64,000 nt of DNA from Bacteroidales bacterium (GCA_045640185.1 JAZUEN010000085.1:3525-67524), one strand, 5' to 3'. Shown: positions 57,745 to 64,000, numbered from the stretch's first letter. Made by a program: numbers and translations. The notes: generated by a model from the sequence alone, not told the origin.

Positions 57745-57861
57745 AGTAATATAATGAGTAATACATTTTTGTTTATAAATATAAACCTATAAATTTAAAG
57801 AACGCACGACATCCTCTTATTTTTGTCGCGATAATTTTTGACACGACAAACAGCATTGACT

Positions 57862-59406
57862 ATGGCAAAGAAATACAAAACTGAAAAAGTCGAACCGACA
57901 GAAAGCCTGTTCGCGGGCACCGGCAAAGTTCCACCACAAGCCATCGATTTTGAAGAATCGGTATTGGGCGCACTAATGCTTGAGAAAGATGCAATACTGC
58001 AGGTTGCAGAAATACTCAAGCCGGAATATTTCTACAAAGAGGAACATGGCAAGATCTACTCGGCCATTCTAAAGCTATTCTCTGACCACAACCCGATAGA
58101 CATAAACACTGTCGCACAAGAATTGAAAATAGAGAAGAAACTTGACGAGATTGGAGGACCTTCGTATTTAATCAACCTGACTAACCGAATCGCATCAACG
58201 GCGCATATAGAATACCACTCACGCATAATTGCGCAAAAATACACACAACGCGAGCTCATCAGGATTGGCGCCGAAATGCAGAAACAAGGCTTCGAGGATG
58301 TTGAAGACGTGTCAGACATGCTGCAACAAGCAGAACAAAGCATATTTGAGCTGTCGGTAGGCAATGTAAAGAAGGAAGTGTCATCGATGGACCAAGTATT
58401 GAAAGAGGCATACGAGCAACTGCAAGAGGCATCAAAGCGCGATGACGGATTGAGTGGCGTGCCAAGCGGATTCAGAAGCCTTGACGAGCTGACACTTGGA
58501 TGGCAAAAATCAGACTTGGTAATCATTGCGGCTCGTCCTGCAATGGGAAAGACAGCCTTTGTCCTATCAATGGCCCGCAACATTGCAGTCGAATCAAACA
58601 TACCTGTTGCAATCTTTTCACTGGAAATGTCATCTGTTCAGTTGGTAAACCGTATCATAAGCAGCGAAGCTGAAATAACCAGTTCCAAGCTAAGGACAGG
58701 AAAGCTCACCAATCTGGAATGGAAAAATCTGGAAACCAAGATGAAGCAACTCGAACTTGCGCCAATGTACATCGACGACACTCCTGCACTATCCCTGACC
58801 GAATTCCGTTCAAAAATTCGGCGACTGAAGCAATTGCATGACATAAAAATAGCAATAATCGACTACCTTCAGCTGATGACTGCAGGAGGCAACCAGCAAA
58901 GCCGTGAGCAGGAAGTTAGCACAATATCAAGATCACTAAAGGCCATTGCAAAGGAAATCGGCATTCCAATAATAGCATTGAGCCAGTTGAGCCGAGCTGT
59001 TGAACAGCGTGGCGGTGACAAACGTCCTCAGCTGTCCGATTTGCGCGAATCGGGAGCCATTGAACAAGATGCCGACATGGTAATCTTCATACACAGACCC
59101 GAATACTATGGAATAAAAGCAGACGAAGCGGGAAACTCCATGATTGGCGTTGCCGAAATCATTGTTGCGAAGCACCGTAATGGTGCCGTTGACGATGTAA
59201 GGCTGCAATTCAAGAGTGAGTTTACCCGATTCTGCAATCCAGAAGACGGCTCGTTAGGGAAAGTTGTATTCCAATCGAAAATGAACTCGAGTCCTGCACA
59301 AAGCACCGAGGCCCCCAGCTCCGGATTTACACCGAACACAAACTTCGACAATCCTCAACCGGACGCAAAACAAGACTTGAACCCAACCGACTCAATCCCA
59401 TTTTAA
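57862..59406 (+). CDS. dnaB: replicative DNA helicase
   Basis: ATG at 57862. PPQAIDFEESVLGALML, Walker A ARPAMGKTAF, IDYLQLM and SQLSR. TAttTTTG at 57818-57825 is a candidate promoter element. Confidence 0.95.
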   Translation: MAKKYKTEKVEPTESLFAGTGKVPPQAIDFEESVLGALMLEKDAILQVAEILKPEYFYKEEHGKIYSAILKLFSDHNPIDINTVAQELKIEKKLDEIGGPSYLINLTNRIASTAHIEYHSRIIAQKYTQRELIRIGAEMQKQGFEDVEDVSDMLQQAEQSIFELSVGNVKKEVSSMDQVLKEAYEQLQEASKRDDGLSGVPSGFRSLDELTLGWQKSDLVIIAARPAMGKTAFVLSMARNIAVESNIPVAIFSLEMSSVQLVNRIISSEAEITSSKLRTGKLTNLEWKNLETKMKQLELAPMYIDDTPALSLTEFRSKIRRLKQLHDIKIAIIDYLQLMTAGGNQQSREQEVSTISRSLKAIAKEIGIPIIALSQLSRAVEQRGGDKRPQLSDLRESGAIEQDADMVIFIHRPEYYGIKADEAGNSMIGVAEIIVAKHRNGAVDDVRLQFKSEFTRFCNPEDGSLGKVVFQSKMNSSPAQSTEAPSSGFTPNTNFDNPQPDAKQDLNPTDSIPF

Positions 59407-59408
59407 GC

Positions 59409-60671
59409 GTGAAACATAAATTTGGAACATTGACATTGCTACTGTTGCTTTTGCTGAAAGAGGCCAGTGCTTCGTATCTGCTAATACCTATGGATGAGGC
59501 GCAAAGCAACCACCTTAAGGCTTATGGCATAACCTATTGGGTGTTGGAGAGCCAGATTCCTGCACAATGGTTGCTCAACTATCGTGGAGGCAGTTTCATG
59601 ATGCAATACAGCAAAGCTATTGAGACCGAATGTGTCATACGCAATGTCAGCTACGAGGTCATTGCCGATGCCAAAGCCTCCAATATTCTAACCGAGATAA
59701 GTGGCGAAGACGTAAACATGGATGCCCTGAAACTTGAAAAAGCGCCCAAAATTGCAGTTTATTCGCCCAAAGACAAATTGCCATGGGACGATGCCGTAAC
59801 CATGGTCCTGACATACGCCGAGATACCTTACACTATAATATATGACGAAGAAATTGTCAATGGCGAATTAAGCCAATACGATTGGCTGCACCTTCACCAC
59901 GAAGACTTCACCGGACAATACGGCAAATTCTACGCGGCATATAAAAACACAGGATGGTACACAAGCCAAGTCAGCAACGCAGAAGCTGACGCCAAAAGAA
60001 TGGGCTTCGACAAGGTATCGAAACTGAAGCTATATGTTGCACAGACAATAAAGGACTATGTCGCCAACGGAGGATTCCTATTCGCAATGTGTTCTGCAAC
60101 CGACTCTTATGACATCGCCCTAGCTGCCGCCAATACCGACATTTGCGAGTATATGTTTGATGGCGATGCCATGGACCCACAAGCCCAAAACAAGCTGAAT
60201 TTCGACAATACTTTTGCATTCCAGAACTTCACTCTGGAAAAGAACCCTCTTGTTTATGAATATTCAGACATTGACGTGACAACATCTCGCAAGGTGAATT
60301 CCGAAAACGACTATTTCACTCTGTTCGAATTCTCGGCAAAATGGGACCAAGTTCCAACCATGCTATGCCAAAACCATGAAACAACCATTCGCGGCTTTAT
60401 GGGACAGACTACTGCATACAACTCAAAACTGCTAAAGCCTAACGTTCTGATTATGGGCGAAAACAAATCTGCCGGCGAGGCACGCTACATACACGGGGAA
60501 TTTGGCAAAGGCACATGGACGTTCTATGGGGGGCACGACCCTGAAGATTACCAACATTTTGTAGGCGACAAGCCGACTAATCTGGAGATGTATCCCAACT
60601 CTCCCGGATTCAGGCTAATACTCAACAACGTGCTCTTCCCTGCCGCAAAGAAAAAAAAGATGAAAACATAA
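59409..60671 (+). CDS. secreted hypothetical protein (possible class-I glutamine-amidotransferase-like fold)
   Basis: GTG start 2 nt after the dnaB stop. Signal-like LTLLLLLLLKEASA. KIAVYSP..PWDDAV and GGFLFAMCSATDS suggest a GATase1-like elbow, which is a weak inference only. Confidence 0.45.
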   Translation: MKHKFGTLTLLLLLLLKEASASYLLIPMDEAQSNHLKAYGITYWVLESQIPAQWLLNYRGGSFMMQYSKAIETECVIRNVSYEVIADAKASNILTEISGEDVNMDALKLEKAPKIAVYSPKDKLPWDDAVTMVLTYAEIPYTIIYDEEIVNGELSQYDWLHLHHEDFTGQYGKFYAAYKNTGWYTSQVSNAEADAKRMGFDKVSKLKLYVAQTIKDYVANGGFLFAMCSATDSYDIALAAANTDICEYMFDGDAMDPQAQNKLNFDNTFAFQNFTLEKNPLVYEYSDIDVTTSRKVNSENDYFTLFEFSAKWDQVPTMLCQNHETTIRGFMGQTTAYNSKLLKPNVLIMGENKSAGEARYIHGEFGKGTWTFYGGHDPEDYQHFVGDKPTNLEMYPNSPGFRLILNNVLFPAAKKKKMKT

Positions 60672-60692
60672 AACAGACATCCTTATACAAAT

Positions 60693-60722
60693 AAAAAATG
60701 GCGCTTTATGGCGCCATTTTTT
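60693..60722. terminator. bidirectional Rho-independent terminator
   Basis: aaaaaatggcgc tttatg gcgccatttttt, a perfect stem flanked by A- and T-runs between convergent genes. Confidence 0.85.
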
Positions 60723-60738
60723 ATTATTCGGAATCAAT

Positions 60739-62172
60739 CTATTTATATCGGAAGCCTATTGTCAATGCAAAATTTCCCTTCATGTTTTTCAACTTTGACG
60801 CACTATCATCATATCCATACAAATAATATGTCTCCGATTTTGTATTCAAGCTATACCCTAAATCGACATATAACCCTGGCATCCTGAACCCGACACCTGC
60901 ACTATATGACATAATACTTGACTTCGAGTTTTCGTGGTCATTGACATACGGGCTTCCATAATAGCCAACGCCACCACGCAAAGCCATCGGGCCTACCAGC
61001 AATTCACCTCCCACTCGCAAATTGACATTTGTTCTATATATATCAGATATAACATCATTTACATAATTGAAATCGTAATGGTGGTTATGCGTATCAAGCG
61101 ATACATTTGAATAATTGACAACCTCGCAATCAACATCAATCATGCCCAATTTTTGAGAGACTAAGGCGAGACTAGCTATGAACCTGCCTGGTGTGTTCAA
61201 TTCCCAATCAATTGCTCCGCTTGAATTTGCCTTATTTGTGCCTAGATTTTCCTCATCGTAATATATTGAAGAAACGACCTCATCATAATAGTCATCTTCC
61301 ATTTGTACAATTGTCGGTGTATGATAAGCCAAGCCAAGACGCACATTGTCATTTAGCCAATAGATTGTTCCCAACTTGACATTAATGCCTCCGCCAACCG
61401 AATGGAACTCATCGTAAACCGAGAAATTGTCAAGACTGATAGGGTGGCTAGGGGTCTCTTCATACTTCGAACTCTGAAAATAGTCAATTCTCATAATATT
61501 GAAAGACGCACCGAAATACCATTTGTCATTAAGGTTAAAGCCCATCATAATTGCATATTCCCCCACGGAACCTGATGATTTTAGCTTCTTGGATTGACGC
61601 GAGCCATAGCTTCCAGCCATCTCGTAATCTGTATAGTAATAACCAGAAGCCGAATCCATTATGAACAAATCTGCATCATAGAACAGGTTGTCATAATTCT
61701 CATCGAAAAAGTCAATTTCGTAATCAAGCATCGAATAATCATTCTCACCTTTTACGAAAACACTTCTGTTGAAATCAGTCAGTCTGTTATACGCAAAGCC
61801 GAAACTTACTGACTTGCATCCCTTGTCTATGCCTGTTTCATAGGTATTGCTGAATCCGATATTCGAAAAATTGAAATTTGTCTTAGACACGTTGCCAGAC
61901 TCACCGTAATAGGTTGACTTCACCTTACTTGTATTCCACGATGGAGTTACCGAAAAGTATCCTGAACGCGTAACGCTCAAACCTGCAGGATTAATCGACA
62001 TCGCCGTAAAATCAGCACCTATGGCACCCATCGCGCCTCCCATCGAATTGAATTTTGCCGTTCCCGCAGGCACAATATTAATGTAGCGTATGGCATCATC
62101 CTCGTTCTGCGCCATTGATACGATGGCTGAGCCAAGCATCATTGCCGATATTATTATTGTCTTTTTATTCAT
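60739..62172 (-). CDS. FadL/PorV-like outer-membrane beta-barrel protein
   Basis: A signal peptide, then DDAIRYINIVPAGTAKFNSMGGAMGAIGADFTAMSINPAGL (G..A..D....NPA pattern of FadL/PorV-type barrels). The body is an alternating beta pattern ending ..LTIGFRYK. Confidence 0.55.
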   Translation of the reverse strand: MNKKTIIISAMMLGSAIVSMAQNEDDAIRYINIVPAGTAKFNSMGGAMGAIGADFTAMSINPAGLSVTRSGYFSVTPSWNTSKVKSTYYGESGNVSKTNFNFSNIGFSNTYETGIDKGCKSVSFGFAYNRLTDFNRSVFVKGENDYSMLDYEIDFFDENYDNLFYDADLFIMDSASGYYYTDYEMAGSYGSRQSKKLKSSGSVGEYAIMMGFNLNDKWYFGASFNIMRIDYFQSSKYEETPSHPISLDNFSVYDEFHSVGGGINVKLGTIYWLNDNVRLGLAYHTPTIVQMEDDYYDEVVSSIYYDEENLGTNKANSSGAIDWELNTPGRFIASLALVSQKLGMIDVDCEVVNYSNVSLDTHNHHYDFNYVNDVISDIYRTNVNLRVGGELLVGPMALRGGVGYYGSPYVNDHENSKSSIMSYSAGVGFRMPGLYVDLGYSLNTKSETYYLYGYDDSASKLKNMKGNFALTIGFRYK

Positions 62173-62205
62173 ATCTCCAACAAATTAAATTGGTTGTAAA
62201 ATCCA

Positions 62206-63528
62206 CTATCTGCGTCCATGGCTTGAACCGCCACCGCTACTACGACCACCGCCACCACTATAACTACGACTGCCAGAAGACGAAGAACTGCTTCTGTAAC
62301 TTGAAGACGAAGAACTGCTTCTGTAGCTCGATGATGATGAGCTGCTTCTGTAGCTCGATGATGATGAACTTGAACGTGCTGGTGCCGAATAGCTTGACGA
62401 GCTATAACTGCTAGATTGTACAGGCGTTGAGTAGCTTGATGTGTTCGACCTGCTAGAACGTGCAGATGTTGAGTAGCTTGATGTGTTCGACCTGCTGGTA
62501 CGTGCCGGTGCAGTTGCATTCGAAACATTAGCGGAGCTGCTACTGGAAGTATAACGAGCGGAATTTGTCGGCTTTGAAGGCAAATGACCGCCATTTTCAC
62601 TTCTGGCAATTGCGTTGTCTCTAGTTGTTGCTCTTACTGTTGTCCGGTTATTTACAGAACCCGCAGACCTGCCTGAGGCGCTTGAAGACGCAACCGCCCT
62701 ATTGGCTCTTGCATTATCATTTAACTGTTTTGCAGGATTCGCCTGTGACGCCCTCCCCCTTGCTTTTGTTTGCGTCTGTGCATTGTTTGACGCAACACTC
62801 GAAGAGCTTGACCTTACCGACGAGTTCCTTGTGTTAGCGACCCCACCTCCTGCGCCATTGCCACTCCGTGACACCGCATTATTTCCACCATACCTATGAT
62901 GCGCATAGTCTCTATGATGTTTGTCATTGTAGCCATAATATGCATAAGTGTCATGATGATGATGTGGGTGATGATGGTATCCATAATATCCATAATATCC
63001 ATAATCATAGTAATAATGATGGTAATACCATGAATCCCAATACCCATAATAGAAACTATAATGGTAATAAGGATAGTAGTCAAAATAAGGGTAATACAAA
63101 GAACCATAGAAATACCTGTCATACCAGAGTGAACCATAATAAAATGGTGAACTCCAAGGACCACCCCATCTATCGACATATAACAGATTGACAGTGACTG
63201 GTGTCACTTCGACTTTCGTCTCGCCATCCTCGAAATATGTTCCATTGTAGTCGTCGCTGAAACGTGCCAAGCGACGTTCGTACTCACCCATTTCGTCGGC
63301 ATCGGCCAAGGTATCCACCGCGATAGAATCGTAGGCTACTGCGGTAGCCAAAGCCATCTGATCATTTTCATTCGACGGAACTTGTGTCGCCGAAGCAACA
63401 AGATGCGCATCTATTTTAGCATTATAATACGTATCGTCATAATAACTTGAAAATCCCGTCATTGTGCTACACGACGTCGCGAATCCTATTGCGCCAATCG
63501 CTATTGACATTAAAGCTAGATTTTTCAT
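62206..63528 (-). CDS. lipoprotein with Tyr/His-rich low-complexity core and Ser/Arg/Asn-rich repetitive tail
   Basis: Lipobox-like MKNLALMSIAIGAIGFATSC and an ~100-aa ordinary segment. Next comes ..FYYGSLWYDRYFYGSLYYPYFDYYPYYHYSFYYGYWDSWYYHHYYYDYGYYGYYGYHHHPHHHH.., followed by ~230 aa of S/R/N/A/T with the repeat SSSSSSSYR. The ORF is uninterrupted and lies 33 nt upstream of the barrel gene. Confidence 0.6.
   Translation of the reverse strand: MKNLALMSIAIGAIGFATSCSTMTGFSSYYDDTYYNAKIDAHLVASATQVPSNENDQMALATAVAYDSIAVDTLADADEMGEYERRLARFSDDYNGTYFEDGETKVEVTPVTVNLLYVDRWGGPWSSPFYYGSLWYDRYFYGSLYYPYFDYYPYYHYSFYYGYWDSWYYHHYYYDYGYYGYYGYHHHPHHHHDTYAYYGYNDKHHRDYAHHRYGGNNAVSRSGNGAGGGVANTRNSSVRSSSSSVASNNAQTQTKARGRASQANPAKQLNDNARANRAVASSSASGRSAGSVNNRTTVRATTRDNAIARSENGGHLPSKPTNSARYTSSSSSANVSNATAPARTSRSNTSSYSTSARSSRSNTSSYSTPVQSSSYSSSSYSAPARSSSSSSSYRSSSSSSSYRSSSSSSSYRSSSSSSGSRSYSGGGGRSSGGGSSHGRR
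62274..62513 (-). repeat. intragenic tandem repeats (27-bp unit x4; 42-bp unit x2)
   Basis: 27-bp periodicity over about 62274-62381 (..gaagacgaagaactgcttctgta.. / ..ctcgatgatgatgagctgcttctgtag..), encoding SSSSSSSYR units. Two 42-bp units start at 62430 and 62472 (gagtagcttgatgtgttcgacctgct..), encoding ..SRSNTSSYST... Confidence 0.8.
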
Positions 63529-63600
63529 AGTCGTATTTTATTTTAAGTTATTACTCTTTTGTTTTAATTTGCGCCTAATTAACAACGACAAAATAAATAA

Positions 63601-64000
<400 letters not shown>

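Follow-up and report, generated by a model that had tools for sequence, protein, structure and literature searches.

A conserved operon-like gene pair of the Bacteroidota outer membrane: a predicted FadL-fold barrel of the BSAP-1 receptor family and its putatively disordered partner

The window considered here—that is, a whole stretch of 64,000 nucleotides (nt) of DNA from a Bacteroidales bacterium (GCA_045640185.1 JAZUEN010000085.1:3525-67524)—contains a two-gene unit on the minus strand, to which all coordinates within the unit refer. A 440-amino-acid open reading frame (ORF; 62206-63528), hereafter the partner, is followed across a 33-nt spacer (62173-62205) by a 477-amino-acid ORF (60739-62172), which was assigned by ORF calling, models, and structure comparison to a FadL-fold β-barrel of the B1R (BSAP-1 receptor) family. 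The two ORFs constitute an operon-like unit of the outer membrane that is conserved among Bacteroidota, in which the partner is predicted to be intrinsically disordered from end to end. An earlier note, made from the DNA sequence, had read the two genes as a pair closed by a bidirectional terminator, and this description holds: an intrinsic-terminator hairpin (60690-60725) with a perfect stem of 15 bp (-18.8 kcal/mol, z = -6.25) lies between the barrel gene and a convergent gene of 420 amino acids. On the other side, an AT-rich intergenic region of 99 nt (63529-63627), in which divergent promoters are presumably sited, separates the partner gene from the divergent proS, whose ATG lies at 63628 on the plus strand.

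The partner begins with a signal peptide and lipobox (amino acids 1-20; 63469-63528), and its assignment as a lipoprotein is a match to the pattern ..GFATS|C, with GFATSC at amino acids 15-20. The mature sequence comprises three compositional blocks. The acidic N-region (amino acids 21-115; 63184-63468; net charge -13, isoelectric point 4.05) contains two short motifs, namely M1, YYDDTYYN (amino acids 29-36; 63421-63444), and M2, EYERRLARFSDDY (amino acids 82-94; 63247-63285). The aromatic block (amino acids 116-219, 104 residues; 62872-63183) consists of 33% Tyr, 13% His, 11% Gly, and 5% Trp, and contains YGYYGYYGY and HHHPHHHH. The basic Ser/Arg/Asn/Thr tail (amino acids 220-440, 221 residues; 62209-62871) has a net charge of +25 and an isoelectric point of 12, with 36% Ser and 11% Arg, and ends in a Gly-rich, RR-terminated stretch, GGGGRSSGGGSSHGRR (62209-62256; last residues GRR). 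The lipoprotein signal and the three blocks that the earlier note had described for a coding ORF were thus confirmed, as was its statement that the frame stays open while the others are broken, with 11-47 stops in each of the remaining five frames. Among the approximately 50 ORFs of the window, the partner is the only one in which aromatic residues and His (Y/W/H/F) exceed 35% over any 60 residues (maximum fraction 0.70, versus at most 0.28 elsewhere), and the only one in which S/R/N/T/G make up more than 0.6 of the last 100 residues (0.82, versus at most 0.40 elsewhere).

An AlphaFold2 model of the partner, built from an alignment of 28 sequences, is coil outside the signal peptide apart from two short helices (amino acids 40-46 and 82-87), with a mean predicted local distance difference test score (pLDDT) of 44, and it is for this reason that the protein is regarded as disordered. 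The N-region, which had been taken for an ordinary segment of about 100 residues, is therefore not modelled as a folded domain. At the DNA level, the tail contains two in-frame tandem repeats, at 62276-62370 (27 nt x 3.5) and 62408-62505 (42 nt x 2.3), the units of which encode SSSSSSSYR and SRSNTSSYST.., respectively. A strain-variant contig from another sample (L091) is 99.6% identical over 3.5 kb, with 15 substitutions and no indels; it covers the last ~285 codons of the 440-amino-acid ORF, where six substitutions and no indels leave the frame open. The copy number of the tail repeats is the same in this variant as in the window.

No family model accounts for the partner, in agreement with the earlier failure to recognise one. 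Pfam gave no match for the window protein or for 13 relatives, and NCBIfam gave for the window protein a weak signal-peptide match alone (PG1828 lipoprotein family, 11.6 bits versus a cutoff of 50); an exact look-up of three window proteins in a protein collection found none present. A word-indexed search with the 440-amino-acid sequence returned 34 proteins of 380-500 amino acids from Bacteroidales metagenomes, none with a Pfam domain, and the few of these with a source name are called hypothetical. In most of the 34, the order runs from a signal through the motifs DD.YY and Y.ERI.RFH and a Tyr/Trp/His/Gly block to an S/R-rich tail that closes with RR; six have different N-terminal domains. 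When a partner profile was scanned with HMMER against 1.84 billion cluster representatives, 4,976 matches, most of them over the full length, passed E<=1e-3, of which 2,379 passed E<=1e-10 and 293 passed E<=1e-30. The window partner carries every feature of this family, whose sampled clusters with a source name are all labelled "hypothetical protein". A close relative and more than 100 distant ones all keep the frame of the partner-like ORF open, and a reading of the ORF as non-coding or as an artefact is ruled out by this conservation. The partner family is unnamed and not described in the literature searched, and a search for work on disordered Bacteroidota lipoproteins or periplasmic condensates found nothing relevant.

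What selection keeps in the partner is the two motifs near the mature N-terminus, the order of the blocks, and the Gly-rich C-terminus with its two basic residues. Of 98 members, 87 carry M1 (pattern [YN]DD[VIL]Y[YF]; fuller consensus [YN]DD[VIL]Y[YF][ST]P.D), placed 2-12 residues from the mature N-terminus, and 77 carry M2 (pattern DY.Y..R[IL]RRFH.P; fuller consensus DY.Y[AS].R[IL]RRFH.P). The block order is acidic, then Tyr/Trp/Gly-rich, then basic: the acidic region has a median net charge of -10, the aromatic block a median length of 116 amino acids (27% Tyr, 13% Gly, 7% Trp, 4% His), and the basic tail a median length of 235 amino acids and a net charge of +23 (26% Ser, 12% Arg). R439 and R440 are the sole invariant mature positions in the partner alignments (A1 and A3), and two basic C-terminal residues are present in 91 of 106 members. 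The chemistry of the tail varies by lineage—S/R in the Bacteroidales and P/N/Q/K in Flavobacteriales-like members—and in some lineages the aromatic block is Trp/Gly-rich or Asn/Trp-rich instead. This drift bears on the idea that the His/Tyr block binds metal, as raised in the earlier note, or haem. The HHHPHHHH run and the 13% His of the window block are what such a role would call for, and one barrel homologue (P0132) carries the label "hemin receptor", an unverified automatic annotation. However, His runs of at least three residues are not conserved, being confined to 19 of 106 members, the share of His in the aromatic block across the family is 4.4%, and entire lineages have Trp/Gly or Asn/Trp blocks, which together make metal or haem binding hardly credible as a conserved role.

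With respect to targeting, the partner is by all indications Sec-exported, and the window member lipidated. A lipobox was recognised by regular expression in at least 80 of 106 family members, and a few more escaped the expression. A signal-peptidase-I-type signal is present in roughly a fifth of the relatives, and most lipobox-free partners have a signal-peptidase-I site ending in AQ with M1 directly after it. The Bacteroidota surface-export signal, taken as a minimum of two acidic residues in the ~6 positions after the lipid Cys (rule as in PMC12578637), was found neither in the window partner (C-STMTGF) nor in the 80 lipoprotein relatives checked; the five positions after the Cys contain no acidic residue in 72 of the 80 and one in the other 8. 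A surface adhesin, which had been suggested earlier, is for this reason not the default reading. No C-terminal sorting signal (type IX secretion C-terminal domain, PEP-CTERM-like) was found in the partner either, as judged by Pfam and NCBIfam and by a tail that is 7% hydrophobic and has no helix.

The association of the partner with the barrel was examined in related genomes. Barrel homologues numbered 1,209 at E<=1e-5, the closest of which (54% identity) are from Salinivirgaceae rumen metagenome-assembled genomes. A barrel alignment was used to scan GTDB (one genome per species); of the first 600 candidates, 530 were confirmed, and 80 loci were fetched, spanning Bacteroidales, Flavobacteriales, Sphingobacteriia, Saprospiraceae, Chitinophagaceae, and others. 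In all of the ~72 loci with at least 1.3 kb upstream, to which the count was limited, a partner-type ORF lies directly upstream of the barrel on the same strand at a distance of 3-253 nt; these ORFs have a signal peptide, a 60-amino-acid stretch with 28-68% Y/W/H/F, a hydrophilic basic tail, and, with two exceptions, a basic C-terminus. The same arrangement was found in ~31 of 33 human-gut contigs with room upstream and in a further set of loci (L001-L006), and proS is adjacent and divergent in 64 of the 80 related genome loci. In one locus (L002 7404-8871; GCA_002305545.1), the barrel gene is split into ORFs of 105 and 377 amino acids, probably by a frameshift or an assembly error; the near-identical L001 and L003 have a single 509-amino-acid ORF. 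In another (L004 2692-5778, minus strand), a surface lipoprotein of 570 amino acids with the export signal C-DGDYD and no Pfam match, followed by a DUF5723 barrel, lies beside the module; this pair was ruled out as a paralogue, being of ordinary composition and unrelated.

The C-terminal part of the partner is not confined to such loci. In the exported Bacteroidales proteins P0005/P0011/P0025, P0014/P0029, and P0032, the aromatic block, S/R tail, and RR end stand behind other, apparently folded N-terminal domains—NLDLNGDG.VDYL..YIIEP in P0005/P0011/P0025—and the two of these that were checked (P0005 and P0029; loci L087-L090) are not beside a FadL-type barrel, their neighbours being ribBA, recQ, and TPM-phosphatase genes. 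Thus, the aromatic and basic C-terminal architecture looks like a portable module that can be attached to other domains, and M1 and M2 seem to go with the barrel. Among barrel-linked loci, two (L012 2809-3900 and L068 1932-3056) have a variant partner with a non-repetitive Lys/Glu-rich N-terminal region of ~250 amino acids, in which the DD.Y motif comes late, the aromatic block is a short PYPYWAGYPYWYG stretch, and the tail, ending in RGRRK, has just 19 amino acids.

The barrel has a signal peptide (amino acids 1-21), followed by the mature N-terminus QNEDDAIRY and a hatch with NPAG (amino acids 22-70; 61963-62109). Across the family, the mature N-terminus is conserved as Q-N-E-x-D-A-L-R-Y-S ... 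GTAR..SMGGAFGALGGD.S..S.NPAG, with N61-P62-A63-G64 of the hatch invariant; by our own count, the part before NPA is ~7 residues longer than in E. coli FadL. The match to Pfam Toluene_X (PF03349) is marginal (30.1 bits versus a gathering cutoff of 29.7), and many homologues have a precomputed PF03349 match. The AlphaFold model (pLDDT 88.4, predicted template-modelling score 0.83) has ~14 strands, and the top Foldseek matches in the PDB were BtBamG (9hiv_F, E = 8e-20), E. coli FadL, FjBamG, PgBamG, TodX, TbuX, and CymD, at ~13% identity, template-modelling (TM) scores of 0.5-0.66, and a probability of 1.0 to FadL, TodX, TbuX, and BamG. At the sequence level, a search of the PDB with the single barrel sequence gave a chance match alone, and a profile of 26 sequences (A2) reached, among the FadL, BamG, and PorV chains, only TbuX (25.8 bits, 4e-5). 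For this reason, the barrel is considered to represent a FadL-fold, 14-strand clade that is distinct from BamG, PorV, and the classical FadL/TodX transporters.

Of the earlier description of the barrel as FadL/PorV-like, the first half stands, with the FadL-type NPAG hatch, and the second does not. PorV, the shuttle of type IX secretion, is likewise a Bacteroidota FadL-family barrel, which binds C-terminal signals of other proteins at the cell surface, but the score to NCBIfam PorV2 is 21.8 bits versus a cutoff of 325, and the Foldseek match to PorV (8gl6_F, E = 8e-6) has a TM score of 0.32-0.40, as compared with 0.54-0.66 to FadL and BamG; furthermore, the window partner is without a type IX C-terminal domain. 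FadL, TodX, and TbuX (PF03349) share the fold, the N-terminal hatch with NPA(G), and a kinked strand, and differ from the window family in its long acidic loop 2 (L2) and obligatory partner gene. The fold also bears on whether the partner might be a matrix protein, adhesin, or amyloid-like cargo secreted through the barrel in the style of curli or Fap. The aggregation-prone Tyr/Gly-rich block and the constantly adjacent barrel gene are in line with such export, but a FadL-fold barrel is a plugged 14-strand channel, a type through which no protein is known to be exported, most partners are lipid-anchored, and a tail whose composition drifts between lineages, with no amyloid-subunit-type repeats, is not what such cargo would show; we consider this reading very unlikely.

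A close parallel is BamG, an essential FadL-fold subunit of the Bacteroidota β-barrel assembly machinery (BAM) that holds the surface lipoprotein BamH; there is also an operon for BamG2-BamH2, and the FadL paralogues of B. thetaiotaomicron number four (PMC12578637, PMC12611786, both of 2025). As in BamG-BamH, a FadL-fold 14-strand barrel with an extended conserved N-terminus would serve in the window family as a platform for an adjacently encoded lipoprotein, and three BamG chains (9hiv_F, 9n2d_B, and 9hjm_F) were among the top structural matches. Searches with phmmer and with the family profile found none of these three chains at E<=10, although all were in the library. The barrels of the window family have 477-556 amino acids, as opposed to ~390-406 in BamG; the partner is disordered by prediction and without a surface-export signal, in contrast to the folded BamH, a lipoprotein of the surface; and the B. 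fragilis member of the window family, unlike the essential BamG, is deletable. In pulldowns of BtBamA and FjBamA, no FadL-type barrel but BamG was among the co-purifying subunits (PMC12578637, PMC12611786). The identification of the barrel as BamG was ruled out by the lack of a sequence match and of a BamH-type partner.

A more direct link leads to Bacteroides fragilis. The BSAP-1 receptor B1R(S), or OmpS (BF9343_1563, 556 amino acids), is a FadL-family protein with an extracellular domain (PMC12853789), whose resistant orthologue is BF638R_1645 and whose upstream genes are BF9343_1562, BF638R_1644, and HMPREF1080_01555. The published mass-spectrometry peptides of B1R(S) carry the motifs of the window family and, concatenated, score 105 bits against a hidden Markov model (HMM) of the window barrel and the 80 genome loci. 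A metagenome scan based on these peptides retrieved human-gut contigs, one of which (L093) holds all 25 BF9343_1563 peptides exactly; its barrel scores 306.6 bits against the family HMM, and the 444-amino-acid ORF upstream scores 149.5 bits against the partner HMM. That partner contains VMAQ|SNNDDLYFVPSK... and then DDYEYAERIIRFRNP; its W/G/Y block includes HHHH, and its S/R/T tail finishes with GGGGGSSRGRR. On this sequence evidence, the window barrel belongs to the same family as B1R(S). The two pairs share the hatch, HTPT, and DYE.VDYS motifs in the barrel and M1, M2, the aromatic block, and an S/R tail ending in GRR in the partner, at an identity of ~29% for the barrel and 34% for the partner, the latter figure being inflated by composition in a global alignment. 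They differ in that the B. fragilis partner has a signal-peptidase-I signal, as opposed to a lipobox in the window, the B. fragilis L2 is longer (74 amino acids, net charge -7), and the neighbour is a prmA-like gene instead of proS. In the gut Bacteroides loci L093, L099, L103, L107, L109, and L121, the module lies beside the prmA-like gene and the partner has the signal-peptidase-I signal, and both proS linkage and lipidation were thus lost in this lineage. The bsap-1 gene was not found in the fetched gut loci.

A 2016 study of the B. fragilis genes notes that BF638R_1644/HMPREF1080_01555 is exported via a signal-peptidase-I site and is not the toxin target, and that its 3′ part belongs, together with bsap-1 and the barrel gene, to the segment varying between strains; binding of BSAP-1 is strain-specific, even inside B. 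fragilis (PMC4999547). A barrel deletion mutant grew normally in rich medium and had a colonisation defect in gnotobiotic mice (P = 2e-6; PMC4999547). In published accounts, the barrel is a toxin receptor with no cellular function assigned (PMC4999547, PMC12853789). The C-terminal domain of BSAP-1 (38 residues with 6 Arg, 1 Lys, and no acidic residue, ending in R-R-P) occupies a strongly negative groove of the extracellular domain of the receptor; charge mutations abolish binding to B1R(S), and loss of the last seven residues weakens killing (PMC12853789). Compared by these published charged positions, not by sequence, the partner tail has a similar end: in the window protein as in that of B. 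fragilis, 6 of the last 38 residues are Arg and none is acidic; the family median is 5 Arg with zero acidic residues, and 84% of members are acid-free over this length.

The barrel has a candidate counterpart to the groove. Its predicted extracellular L2 (amino acids 145-190; 61603-61740), in a loop topology read from the secondary structure of the AlphaFold model and not from coordinates, contains 12 acidic and no basic residues (net charge -12); the family median, on the same modelled topology, is 54 amino acids with a net charge of -7, and the periplasmic turns are short and near zero charge. Across 71 pairs, the charge of the extracellular loops was found to correlate with that of the partner tail (rho = -0.51, p = 5e-6), as it did in independent contrasts on the barrel tree (r = -0.39, p = 4e-4), and partner charge did not correlate with that of the periplasmic turns of the barrel or of the cytoplasmic ProS.

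The reading that we put forward, tentatively and at rather less than an even chance, is that the tail is the barrel's own natural ligand, which BSAP-1 imitates. The disordered partner would be the barrel's own partner, held at the barrel by M1 and M2, a role suggested for these motifs because they are confined to the barrel-linked proteins examined, while the aromatic and basic module occurs elsewhere. The Arg-rich, acid-free tail with its free RR end would dock on the acidic extracellular L2, the small-residue tail being threaded through the FadL-type lumen or a lateral opening during assembly of the complex by BAM, and the bulky aromatic block and N-region would stay in the periplasm. The outcome would be a barrel with a tethered plug or ligand that gates or stabilises a channel for hydrophobic compounds, and BSAP-1 would kill by offering a look-alike tail to the same groove. 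A polyanion-binding tail and a plug for the barrel, both mentioned in the earlier note, are compatible with the evidence, and the proposal is a specific form of both. A precedent for threading is RcsF-OmpA/C/F, in which a disordered positive segment of the lipoprotein RcsF, an envelope-stress sensor, is threaded through the barrel lumen during BAM assembly, so that a single protein traverses the outer membrane. The proteins are unrelated to the window pair, however, the orientation would be opposite, and threading is in the present case a proposal only.

Several points weigh against the tail-ligand proposal. The tail must cross the membrane, and threading is probably the weakest step: the partner carries no signal for surface export, members without lipidation occur, and by the usual Bacteroidota rule it faces the periplasm, whereas the groove is extracellular, and the invariant FadL-type hatch (NPAG), which normally plugs the lumen, is retained. 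Loop charge correlates more strongly with the charge of the partner N-region (+0.63) than with that of the tail, and the loop-tail partial correlation with the N-region controlled is -0.17; the charge correlation could reflect a habitat-driven composition of all extracytoplasmic segments. The loop assignment shares the limits of its modelled topology, in which a break at 134-135 is taken as the FadL S3 kink, and the likeness to BSAP-1 is one of charged positions. Finally, B1R(S) produced by itself in either B. thetaiotaomicron or B. uniformis retains its binding of BSAP-1 (PMC4999547, PMC12853789), indicating that the groove is accessible, at least without the cognate partner.

The targeting of the partner fits more easily with a periplasmic tether or matrix—that is, a partner that is wholly periplasmic and fixed to the outer membrane through its lipid, the barrel, or both, with the barrel acting as an anchor only. 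The Tyr-rich block, as a "sticker", and the Arg tail would self-associate by cation-pi contacts, with the acidic N-region against the basic tail, or bind polyanions of the periplasm, for instance peptidoglycan or anionic lipids, giving a layer or spacer beneath the membrane. Besides the missing export signal, this account draws on the anticorrelation of tail charge with the partner's own N-region charge (rho = -0.60) and on the aromatic, basic, and RR module attached to domains that are not barrel-adjacent, which suggests a function of its own. It leaves unexplained the strict pairing with one barrel clade, does not predict that charge tracks the extracellular loops and not the periplasmic turns, and does not account for the likeness of the tail end to the receptor-binding tail of BSAP-1. 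We regard a periplasmic tether as possible, if on balance doubtful.

Data from Flavobacterium johnsoniae touch on this and two further readings. Fjoh_4941 is a FadL homologue, and the adjacent Fjoh_4940 is an SPII-type, periplasm-facing lipoprotein without a Pfam domain that was detected by mass spectrometry (PMC12045153). The gene order—proS (Fjoh_4939), lipoprotein, barrel—is that of the window family, Fjoh_4941 has a mass of 55 kDa, and its six published peptides map in order onto the family; on this basis of synteny, size, and six peptides, not full sequences, Fjoh_4940 and Fjoh_4941 are probable orthologues of the window pair. The detection of Fjoh_4940 thereby supplies peptide evidence for the partner family, and its periplasm-facing class and abundance in membrane fractions favour the tether. 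A homologue search with the six Fjoh_4941 peptides concatenated gave five candidates, none of which scored. On depletion of TamL, Fjoh_4941 rises 5.6-fold and Fjoh_4940 2.6-fold (PMC12045153), and Fjoh_4941 falls on depletion of BamG. A drop of Fjoh_4941 in outer-membrane vesicles was set aside as a clue, being common to almost all barrels. For B. thetaiotaomicron, no locus tags of the pair were found in the supplement tables or among UniProt accessions near proS.

The joint rise on TamL depletion also speaks for the partner as a dedicated assembly factor, whose tail and aromatic block would transiently shield the long acidic, aromatic L2 and the strands while the barrel awaits insertion by BAM in the periplasm. 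The covariation of tail charge with the future extracellular loops and the position of the partner gene, first in operon order, point the same way, and the BAM of Bacteroidota is specialised for barrel-lipoprotein complexes (PMC12578637). However, B1R(S) is surface-displayed in heterologous hosts without its cognate partner gene (hosts that carry their own copy of the module), and a lipid-anchored, abundant protein of 400 amino acids with an invariant C-terminus exceeds what a holdase would appear to need, so that we judge this account unlikely. A last and highly improbable reading is that the module carries Bacteroidota surface lipoproteins across the outer membrane, as the device so far missing for this step, with a lateral opening of the barrel passing the acyl chains between lumen and bilayer and the polycationic partner capturing the acidic export signal after the lipid Cys. 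Three observations fit it without testing it: the probable F. johnsoniae orthologues rise together with LolA homologues on TamL depletion, with lipoproteins accumulating (PMC12045153); the pair is distributed throughout the phylum; and the B. fragilis barrel mutant, viable in rich medium, colonises poorly (PMC4999547).

Beyond the shared terminator, the convergent 420-amino-acid ORF (59409-60671, plus strand; 393 amino acids counted from the first ATG) starts directly after the stop codon of dnaB (57838-59406). In its GTG-start reading, it has a signal-peptide-like N-terminus, and it gave no match in Pfam or NCBIfam.

The barrel family is of practical interest, since its B. fragilis member, as the receptor, determines whether cells are sensitive to the MACPF toxin BSAP-1, and gut colonisation requires it. 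If the tail is indeed a ligand of the barrel, it would be a candidate natural ligand for the BSAP-1 receptor, and it would be explained why strains replace the 3′ end of the partner gene along with the barrel gene; the receptor-binding tail of the toxin resembles the partner's own tail. Like BamG-BamH, the pair appears to combine a FadL-fold docking barrel with an adjacent partner, and what is new is that the partner is, by prediction, an intrinsically disordered block protein. Overall, with this pair the FadL fold may serve Bacteroidota for docking in yet a third manner, and the partner family comprises extracytoplasmic, putatively disordered proteins in thousands of lineages, conserved in composition and block order and not in sequence.

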